Shown one piece after another: positions 61,001-64,000 of a stretch of 64,000 bases of DNA (position 1 is the first letter of the stretch; every line of letters begins with the position of its first letter). Origin of the DNA: Escherichia coli O127:H6 str. E2348/69. Its GTDB lineage: Bacteria; Pseudomonadota; Gammaproteobacteria; Enterobacterales; Enterobacteriaceae. The stretch is taken from assembly GCF_000026545.1 (NCBI RefSeq), contig NC_011603.1. One strand, 5' to 3'. Position numbers: made by a program.

Positions 61001-64000
61001 GACCGTGGTTGACAGCTTCAGTAACTTTGGCGAGCTCTGGCTGAACAGGGATAAACTCCCCGGGATTATCAATAGCTCTGCGGAGACGTTCAGCATGTAT
61101 CTGGAGCAGCAGATAGAATCGCTTATTGTCTGGCAGATCCCGAATACCTACATCATTGAATTCCGGGGCAAACCACTGGAACAACACTCATTGGGTCAAC
61201 GCGCATCCGCATTAATGCTGTTTGTCCTGAATCAGCAGGACAATGATGTGGTGATCATCGATCAACCCGAAGACGACCTGGACAATCAGACGATTTATGA
61301 CGACGTGATTAAAATCATCAGGGCGATGAAACCCCGCACGCAATTTATCTTTGCCACTCACAATGCCAATATTCCGGTGCTCGGAGATGCAGAAAATGTC
61401 TGTGCCTGTGAATATTCAGACGGAAAGATCCAGATTGTCGGCGGAGGCGTGGATGCCCCTCTTGTACAACAGCACATTATTTCGGTAATGGAAGGAGGGC
61501 GGGAAGCCTTCGAGCGACGCAGGGAAGTTTACGGCTCATGGCTCAGTAAAACCTGATACCATCATGCTTACTGAGCATACAGAAAAAGCCGCAAATGCGG
61601 CTTTTTAATTTTCTGATTATACCTTTTTTGGTTCTTCGATGGAAAAGAAAGAAATTACACAGGCCTGACATATCCATATGCCAGACATCTTCACATTCAA
61701 AGCATATGCATATACTGAGCATAGCCATACAGGCCGCCCGGTCAGGGGGAAATAATGAGAACTGTATCCATTTTTAAAAACGGCAATAACCGCGCCATCC
61801 ATCTGCCCCGCGATTTGGATTTTGAGCGGGTGAGAGAGCTGGAGATCGTCCGCGAAGGAGACAGCATCATCCTGCGTCCCGTCCAGCCGAACTGGGGCTC
61901 ATTCGCGCAGCTCGAAAAAGCCGATCCGGATTTTATGGCGGAGCGCGAGAATGTTGTCAGCGACGAAGGTCGATTTGACCTGTGAACAAAACGTATATGC
62001 TCGACACCTGTATCTGCTCGTTCATCATGCGCAAGCAGCCGGAAACTGTGCTGAAGCGCCTTGAGCAGGCGGCGTGTTTAGTCACCGCATTGTGGTCTCG
62101 GCCATTACTTACTCTGAAATGCGCTTCGGTGCCTCCGGTCCGAAGGCCTCCCCGCGTCACGTGCAACTGGTTGATAAATTCTGCCCGTGCCTCGATGCCA
62201 TCCTGTCTTGGGACCGCGCCGCGGTGGACGGCACCACGGATATTAAAGTGGCACTGCGCCAGGCCGGGACGCCGATCGGCCAGAACGATACGGCGATTGC
62301 CGGGCCTGAAGCTGGAAAACTGGGTAAATTAACATCGCCCACACTCTGAAGGACGTGGGTTCCGGCTTAAACAGGCGGACTGACTGCCCCAATCCTCCAC
62401 ACGCAAGCACGGCATGCCCCGCCGCTAAAATGTTACGAGCGCCGTTTACATCGGCATTCGCTGTATGACCACAGCCAGCACCTGACCACCACGCCAGAGC
62501 TGCTTATACTCAAGCTGGCAGCGCATTTCATACCAGCCCTGATCCAGTATCGAACGGTTTAAATCTGATTTTTATTCGTCATTTACTTCGAACAATACTT
62601 CAATAGATTTTGTCGGGTAGAAGAGCGAATCACAGTTTTCTTCCTTTAACTGTATAAAACCCAGTCGAAGGTAGAATTTTTTGGCGTTATCGTTCAGCGC
62701 CTCCACGAACATTCCGTGTATACCCACAGCCTGCGAGGCCTGATACACGACTTTCATCGCATGGGTAACAAGTGTTTCTCCATATCCCTGGTGATGAATG
62801 CTTTTATCAATTGCCAGACGGCCCAAAATCACGCTCGGCACATTTTTGTAGGGCACACGCTTTTGTTGTGTTTTGCTGGGGAGAAGTATTTTCTCAAAGC
62901 AACTGCCTGACAGGGTGTAGTACCCCATGACACGTGGTCTATCCTCTCTCGTCACGAGCAGATAACCCCGTAAAACCTTACTACTGTGCTGACGTTGCAG
63001 ATGATCGGTGAGAAAAGTATTCAGATACTCTTCTCCACAATCGAAGTTGCTTAATTGATATTCAACTTCCTCTGAAAAAATCTCAATCCTTAAACCGTCC
63101 ATTTATTACTCCAGTTCCCGGAGACGGTTAGTGGCGCGTTTCAGCCGGTCATTTGGTGCTGGCGGATTAGTGATTGCATCCATAACCAGATTCCAGGACT
63201 CCTCATTGAGGAGCAGGCGACGGTGCTGATCAATAACTTCAGCAGCACGTGCTGAGGCGGTACTGACCATGAACTGCGAAATGGACTGGTTAGTCATTGC
63301 TGCAGCTTCTTCGATCATGTGTTTGTCGTCTTCATTTAATCTCAGATCGATGCGCTGCTTCTTCAGTGCTGACATGGTTTTTCTCCCTGACCACTCTTAA
63401 TTCTGAAAGAACGGTCAGCTTTGTTAAGTTCGGGCCTTAAGGCGATAACATTTATCCAGGCCGGTCATGGTGATACTTTGATAGTGAGTACGGAAAAATA
63501 CCGTACAAACATAATAGAGTTATGGTATGCAGGTTTCAACCACAAGTTGGTTATGAATCCGGGTATAGCACGTAAAGGTATAGTGAGAAGACTCTCGACG
63601 CTAATCTGAGCAGGCTCAGACTATCTTTGGCGGGTCTGATCTTAAGAAGTCATTATTAAACTGCACTACGTAACCACCGTATTATGGATCTGCGAGCAAT
63701 TCAGGTACGGCATACTCTACATTGAGGGCTGAACCATCAGTGCTCGCCGCAGTCCGGTGACCGGGCTAAAGCCCGCGAACCGGCGAGGAAGCGCAATAAC
63801 ACAGAAGCTGAAGGAAGCAGGTACGCACTGTAGTCGCGGCAAGTGATCACTGAAGAACTATCTGAATTGCCTTGCTGCTCAGCAGGTTATCCACATATAC
63901 ATTCATTCGATCCAGCAATAAGATCCTTAAAGCGATCCCTGTAAGATCCAAAGAAGATCCCGACATCTCTGAAGGCCGCGCCAGCACTGAGCCTGGAGCA

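Follow-up and report, generated by a model that had tools for sequence, protein, structure and literature searches.

The DnaA box and the adjoining cluster of GATC sites at the right-hand edge of the window (i.e., the whole stretch of 64,000 nt from Escherichia coli O127:H6 str. E2348/69, contig NC_011603.1, that we analyzed) are best explained as the left half of the RepFIB (IncFIB) replication origin of a pMAR2/pMAR7-type EPEC adherence-factor plasmid, a homologue of the P1 oriR-repA region, and we assign this reading a probability of roughly 93%. The feature is already known, being an ordinary, described RepFIB (P1-like) origin; it marks the IncFIB origin on a classical EPEC virulence plasmid and carries little weight as a discovery. 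What the locus does illustrate is that a P1/RepFIB-type origin can be recognized from half of its sequence alone. The origin core itself is unannotated in public records (the entry under the match reads “none”), and the subtypes of FIB origins bear on designs for plasmid curing and incompatibility, of which PMC11983097 gives examples.

Sequence reading and a script both reproduced the arrangement given in the preliminary description, namely, a perfect DnaA box followed by five GATCC motifs at intervals of ~11 to 13 bp. The box, TTATCCACA, occupies positions 63887–63895 on the (+) strand, bounds the RepFIB origin core on the left, and proved to be the sole perfect DnaA box on either strand of the 64,000-base window. 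The five Dam sites lie within heptamer-like repeats (nGATCCn) spanning 63907–63961 on the (+) strand, with GATC beginning at 63909, 63922, 63934, 63945, and 63956 (start-to-start gaps of 13, 12, 11, and 11 bp) and all five reading GATCC on that strand. Although the window holds 172 GATC sites in total (2.7 per kb), the 63909–63956 array is the only place in which five of them fall within 51 bp; a Poisson estimate gives ~0.002 five-GATC clusters expected per window by chance, and ~1.5e-6 if all must read GATCC on the same strand. These figures bear directly on the simplest alternative, i.e., that a DnaA-box-like 9-mer and some GATC sites merely co-occur in non-functional intergenic DNA. Single matches to the DnaA box do arise randomly in large sequences, and no gene is annotated under the feature, but the rarity of the cluster, the uniqueness of the box, the invariance of the box and of every GATC base across origins that are otherwise only ~70% identical, the homology to P1 oriR, and the iterons and rep gene that adjoin the feature (all described below) leave coincidence with next to no probability.

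The GATC sites had also been described as helically phased, and this holds in part. The last three sites, separated by 11 and 11 bp, are nearly in phase, but the mean spacing of the array is 11.75 bp versus 10.5 bp per helical turn, so that sites 1 and 5 are approximately half a turn out of register and the phasing is only approximate. The segment that starts at the DnaA box and ends with the last GATC has an AT content of 62%, compared to 50% for the whole window; since ~15% of the 66-nt windows in the sequence reach this value, the GATC region is to be regarded as only moderately A+T-rich. It is followed by a GC-rich spacer (38% AT) on the (+) strand at 63962–64000, delimited by its composition and by the duplex-stability profile, which reaches the window edge, ends ~2 bp past it, and separates the GATC array from the first iteron. 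By analogy with P1, the array probably serves as the opening (DUE-like) region and as the target of Dam methylation and SeqA.

The last 601 bases of the window (63400–64000) are 100% identical to the E. coli plasmids pMAR7 (NC_010862.1) and pMAR2, the latter being the plasmid of EPEC strain E2348/69 (NZ_CP059841.1). The end of the pMAR7 record coincides exactly with the window end, and the junction of pMAR7 is identical to pMAR2 past the window edge; pMAR2 provides uninterrupted sequence beyond it (locus L001, in which window coordinate = L001 + 59399). Compared end to end, the window matches pMAR7 at 99.99% identity but carries 1,374 extra bases at 46757–48130, so that it represents a plasmid of the pMAR2/pMAR7 type and not the pMAR7 record itself. 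This extra block, absent from pMAR7, contains a 358-aa ORF (47038–48114) and is presumably an insertion sequence.

The preliminary description had suggested that an initiator gene may lie just beyond the window and had staked its reading on iterons and an initiator being found there; extension into pMAR2 brought both into view. A sixth GATC lies 2 bp beyond the window end, after the GC-rich spacer, and the first iteron starts 6 bp beyond it. Five direct iterons of ~21 bp (ATAAGCTGTAG/ATAAACTGTAA type) are arranged at 21-bp spacing at L001 4607–4711, with an extra copy at 4739, and correspond to the block (B, C, D, D′, D″) that RepFIB replicons carry between origin core and rep. A near DnaA box, CTATCCACC, lies between the iterons and rep. 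The rep gene (L001 4864–5853; “RepB family plasmid replication initiator” in RefSeq) starts 263 bp beyond the window edge as annotated, or 233 bp beyond it at an upstream CTG. Its product carries a Rep3_N (WH1) domain (Pfam E = 3e-11), shares 93% identity with the pO157-type FIB Rep over 325 aa and 46% with P1 RepA, and thus belongs to the Rep3-family (iteron-binding, WH1-WH2) initiators close to the characterized FIB Reps; an NCBIfam search of Rep matched no model. Downstream of rep, at L001 5853–6170, a second iteron block contains at least seven copies, mostly inverted relative to the upstream block, as the E to K block of RepFIB does.

The RepFIB basic replicon of the IncF plasmids (P307, F, pO157) has been a subject of the Bergquist laboratory. 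PMC11983097 describes FIB as a rep gene with iterons on both sides, of which BCDD′ lie at the origin while E–K act in control by handcuffing, and the replicon includes a DnaA binding site. The same text describes FIB Rep as weakly expressed and autoregulated through Rep-iteron interaction, and reports that a CTG start codon, 14 codons upstream of a GTG, was confirmed by experiment. The locus analyzed here shares with these replicons a putative DnaA site at the origin (TTATCCACA at 63887–63895), the GATC array, the upstream iterons, a rep gene with a candidate CTG start behind GGAGG, and the downstream inverted iterons. Specifically, the motif GGAGG-N4-CTG is present as GGAGGctatCTG at L001 4825–4836, in frame with rep, corresponding to the CTG start behind a GGAGG/GGAAG ribosome-binding site that is typical of RepFIB, and is presumably used in this plasmid. 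In the surrounding stretch (L001 4825–4866, 226–267 nt past the window end and ~226–267 in the pMAR7 record), RefSeq sets the rep start at a different CTG, at 4864; the experimentally backed FIB start given in PMC11983097 (CTG four bases after GGAGG) maps to L001 4834, 30 nt upstream, and therefore the annotated Rep is probably 10 residues short. Both pMAR2 and pMAR7 are, in addition, typed as IncFIB (MOB-suite typing via PLSDB). All defining features of the RepFIB family that can be read from sequence are thus present, and at this level the locus is a member of it.

Could the replicon be a decayed fossil, inactive while one or more other IncF replicons carry out all replication? The plasmid does hold several replicon types, with the pMAR plasmids additionally typed IncFIA and IncFIC, and its replication may therefore normally depend on a replicon other than FIB. 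Moreover, the FIB of plasmid F is partly defective owing to a weak GGAAG ribosome-binding site, as stated in PMC11983097, which also gives GGAGG for the functional pO157 FIB and states that the latter replicates in a polA host. Here, however, the ribosome-binding site is the strong GGAGG and not the GGAAG of plasmid F, and the box, the five GATC sites, the five iterons, the full-length rep with GGAGG and CTG, and the downstream iterons are all intact. The similarity of Rep to that of the functional pO157 FIB and the maintenance of this origin subtype at 85–100% identity in plasmids of E. coli, Enterobacter, and Salmonella (~660 plasmid records, with these three among the hosts) likewise argue against decay, and we consider an inactive origin very unlikely.

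The P1/RepFIB-type assignment, which had been proposed from the box and the Dam sites, gains support from the phage alignment as well as from the typing, the iterons, and rep. When the 601-base query was searched against phage genomes by sensitive blastn, matches were found only in P1-like phages and only over 63909–63995 (78–81% identity), a segment comprising the GATC array and the spacer, whose P1 counterpart is oriR, immediately upstream of P1 repA. The alignment pairs the DnaA box with the tandem boxes of P1, four of the five GATC heptamers, the GC-rich spacer (with AAGCCGCGTCATTACTGG in P1 oriR), and the five iteron positions. Accordingly, the two regions are alignable in a common order of DnaA box(es), GATC heptamers, GC-rich spacer, five iterons, and rep gene, and the last two heptamers with their flanking bases (AAGATCCAAAGAAGATCCCG) are identical. 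Several details differ: P1 has two tandem DnaA boxes, whereas one perfect box and a degenerate copy (TATACATTC) are found here; the third P1 heptamer reads GAACC and so has no GATC, but a GGATCG is present in addition in P1; the iterons are unrelated in detail (TGACTGTGCACGAT-type versus ATAAGCTGTAG-type); and the annotation used does not give P1 RepA a CTG start. Neither the tandem DnaA boxes nor the P1-specific 19-bp iterons of a P1 (IncY) replicon are present. Given the single perfect box and the different iterons, the locus is a homologue of P1 oriR and not a P1 (IncY) replicon, and the difference in iteron sequence places it in a different incompatibility group.

Further support comes from conservation among FIB origins. 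We aligned six origins from E. coli, Enterobacter, and Salmonella that are ~70% identical overall and fall into two clades. The DnaA box was unchanged in all six and always located 22 bp from the first GATC. GATC columns were invariant in 20 out of 20 cases, compared to 12 out of 31 columns in the spacer (Fisher p = 3e-6, a value that overstates independence because the six sequences fall into two clades). As judged from this alignment, the GATC sites are conserved and not accidental, a pattern that is clear despite the two-clade sampling. A 1-bp indel between the FIB subtypes falls within the GATC array, which excludes conserved coding. Two other candidates in this region were rejected. A 46-aa ORF on the (−) strand (63847–63987) overlaps the array but is not a gene, given the 1-bp indel and a conservation that is site specific and not codon-like, and an Rfam scan for structured RNA (E up to 1), which extended from ~100 bp upstream of window position 63400 through rep and the downstream iterons, returned just two chance-level matches, to a microRNA and a trypanosome snoRNA. 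The anatomy of the locus, its homology, and the conservation of its sites are direct observations.

Published work on P1, ColV-K30, and FIB suggests how such an origin may operate, with binding of DnaA and Rep, opening of the GATC region, dependence on Dam, and binding of SeqA as its likely elements. The functional order would be the DnaA box, five GATC heptamers, the GC-rich spacer, and five Rep-binding iterons, followed by a rep promoter/leader with the near DnaA box, CTG-initiated rep, and the inverted iteron block. Rep monomers would load on the phased iterons while DnaA occupies the box at 63887–63895, and the two, probably together with a nucleoid protein, would open the bracketed 62%-AT GATC region for DnaB loading. 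Initiation would require the GATC sites to be fully Dam-methylated; after fork passage, the hemimethylated sites would probably be bound by SeqA, delaying re-firing, and the downstream inverted iterons would set the copy number by handcuffing. SeqA was first identified as a protein that binds the methylated P1 origin core, and the REPI replicon of ColV-K30 is one that we take to be of the RepFIB type. PMC2865523 describes origin methylation as essential to the replication of plasmids P1 and ColV-K30, for a reason that is “not clear”, and considers initiator binding an unlikely cause of this requirement because the initiator sites (iterons) contain no GATC. The five arrayed GATC sites found here are likewise located outside the iterons; as to the methylation requirement itself, the locus adds no handle beyond P1.

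The left end of E. coli oriC offers a partial parallel, as it too has clustered GATC sites at approximately one-turn spacing beside DnaA sites in the opening region, with Dam and SeqA involved; there, 13-mers that begin with GATC adjoin the DnaA boxes, and SeqA acts by sequestration. However, oriC contains an array of DnaA boxes and AT-rich 13-mers, neither of which occurs here, where a single perfect box is found in 64 kb, and initiation at the plasmid locus would, by analogy, depend on iteron-bound Rep of the plasmid. According to PMC2865523, P1 and ColV-K30 cannot do without methylation, which oriC itself does not strictly need. An origin of the chromosomal oriC type would possess multiple DnaA boxes and a 13-mer DUE, with no Rep or iterons; here, iterons and rep are adjacent to the array, and the locus is not of this type.

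We also considered whether the GATC array could function mainly as a Dam/SeqA-controlled transcriptional switch, acting on rep or on an upstream gene, instead of as the opening region of an origin. Dam-sensitive promoters are known in enterobacterial plasmids, and, in the pMAR-type FIB, both the ribosome-binding site of rep and a near DnaA box are overlapped by another GATC, which lies shortly before the CTG. On the other hand, a promoter scan that began ~100 bp before the window edge and ran up to the start of rep detected no sigma-70-like promoter, and the array lies ~270 bp upstream of the rep start, with the GC-rich spacer, ~110 bp of iterons, and ~120 bp more intervening. The autoregulation of FIB rep through Rep-iteron interaction, as related in PMC11983097, also speaks against such a switch, as does the account of P1 in a review (PMC5043065), where the equivalent region is the DUE, with the DnaA and RepA sites on either side of it, and opening is begun by DnaA alone and greatly stimulated by RepA. 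A role primarily in transcription is therefore highly improbable, and a replication origin remains the preferred reading of the array.

Within RepFIB, the pMAR-type origin represents a distinct sequence subtype: over the box, array, and iterons, its DNA is only ~70% identical to that of the common F/pO157 origin subtype, which is found in ~3,300 plasmid records. Its GATC array is one base longer (13/12/11/11 versus 13/11/11/11), its third site reads GATCC instead of GATCA, and it carries a further GATC by the ribosome-binding site of rep. This extra GATC lies within L001 4812–4829 (~213–230 nt past the window end), where the pMAR-type sequence CTATCCACCGATCGGAGG consists of a near DnaA box followed by the palindrome CGATCG, which holds the GATC and abuts the rep ribosome-binding site; the F/pO157-type counterpart, CCACAGGC(A/T)GGAGG, has no GATC there. 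Through this GATC and near DnaA box, Dam or DnaA could act on rep expression in a subtype-specific manner.

Upstream of the DnaA box, at a distance of ~90 bp, positions 63738–63797 form a 60-bp GC-rich imperfect hairpin, CAGTGCTCGCCGCAGTCCGGTGACCGGGCTAAAGCCCGCGAACCGGCGAGGAAGCGCAAT, which is ~95% identical in ~1,900 IncF plasmids and conserved far better than the origin core. In pEC881_1 (F-type FIB), it occurs at an equal relative position, though the origin core of that plasmid is only ~70% identical. The hairpin is absent upstream of the pO157-type FIB and is half-deleted in a Salmonella Enteritidis plasmid. Its fold as single-stranded DNA does not stand out (z-score of −1.2), and it might serve in priming or mark the edge of a module. 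Between the hairpin and the box (63801–63837) are two sequences that weakly resemble iterons: ACAGAAGCTGAAGGAAGCAG shows 75% identity to one (family D2), and TACGCACTGTAGT is an inverted match (I22). We presume that these repeats may match the non-essential “A” repeat that is implied by the B–K naming of the FIB iterons.

The disparity between origin identity (~70%) and Rep identity (93%), the GATC at the rep site, and the conserved 60-bp hairpin would be compatible with the idea that the pMAR-type FIB origin forms a subtype distinct in function and not just in sequence, a proposal that we nevertheless regard as unlikely. If it were true, the origin would possess an added control, e.g., Dam/SeqA or DnaA acting on the transcription or translation of rep, or a fixed signal for priming or for a boundary, and an altered copy number or altered incompatibility with classical FIB plasmids would be possible.

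Elsewhere, the window contains an F-type tra operon, leading-region genes, IS elements, parMR, and ccdAB, together with a TrlF-family ATPase gene, vapB, and a TacA/TacT-like pair. Directly upstream of the origin, on the (−) strand at 62572–63375, a TacA-like antitoxin (89 aa; Pfam TacA1) is paired with a GNAT toxin (176 aa), and the Enterobacter plasmid pNDM1_EC14653 carries this same pair beside the pMAR-type FIB subtype. The vapB gene (61755–61985) is followed by a 116-aa ORF at 61982–62332 without an annotation entry, which may be a vapC pseudogene. Between ccdAB and this toxin-antitoxin cluster, at 58935–61556, lies the gene for an 873-aa “TrlF family AAA-like ATPase” with AAA_21, SMC_N, and AAA_23 matches, which could be a defence or stability gene.
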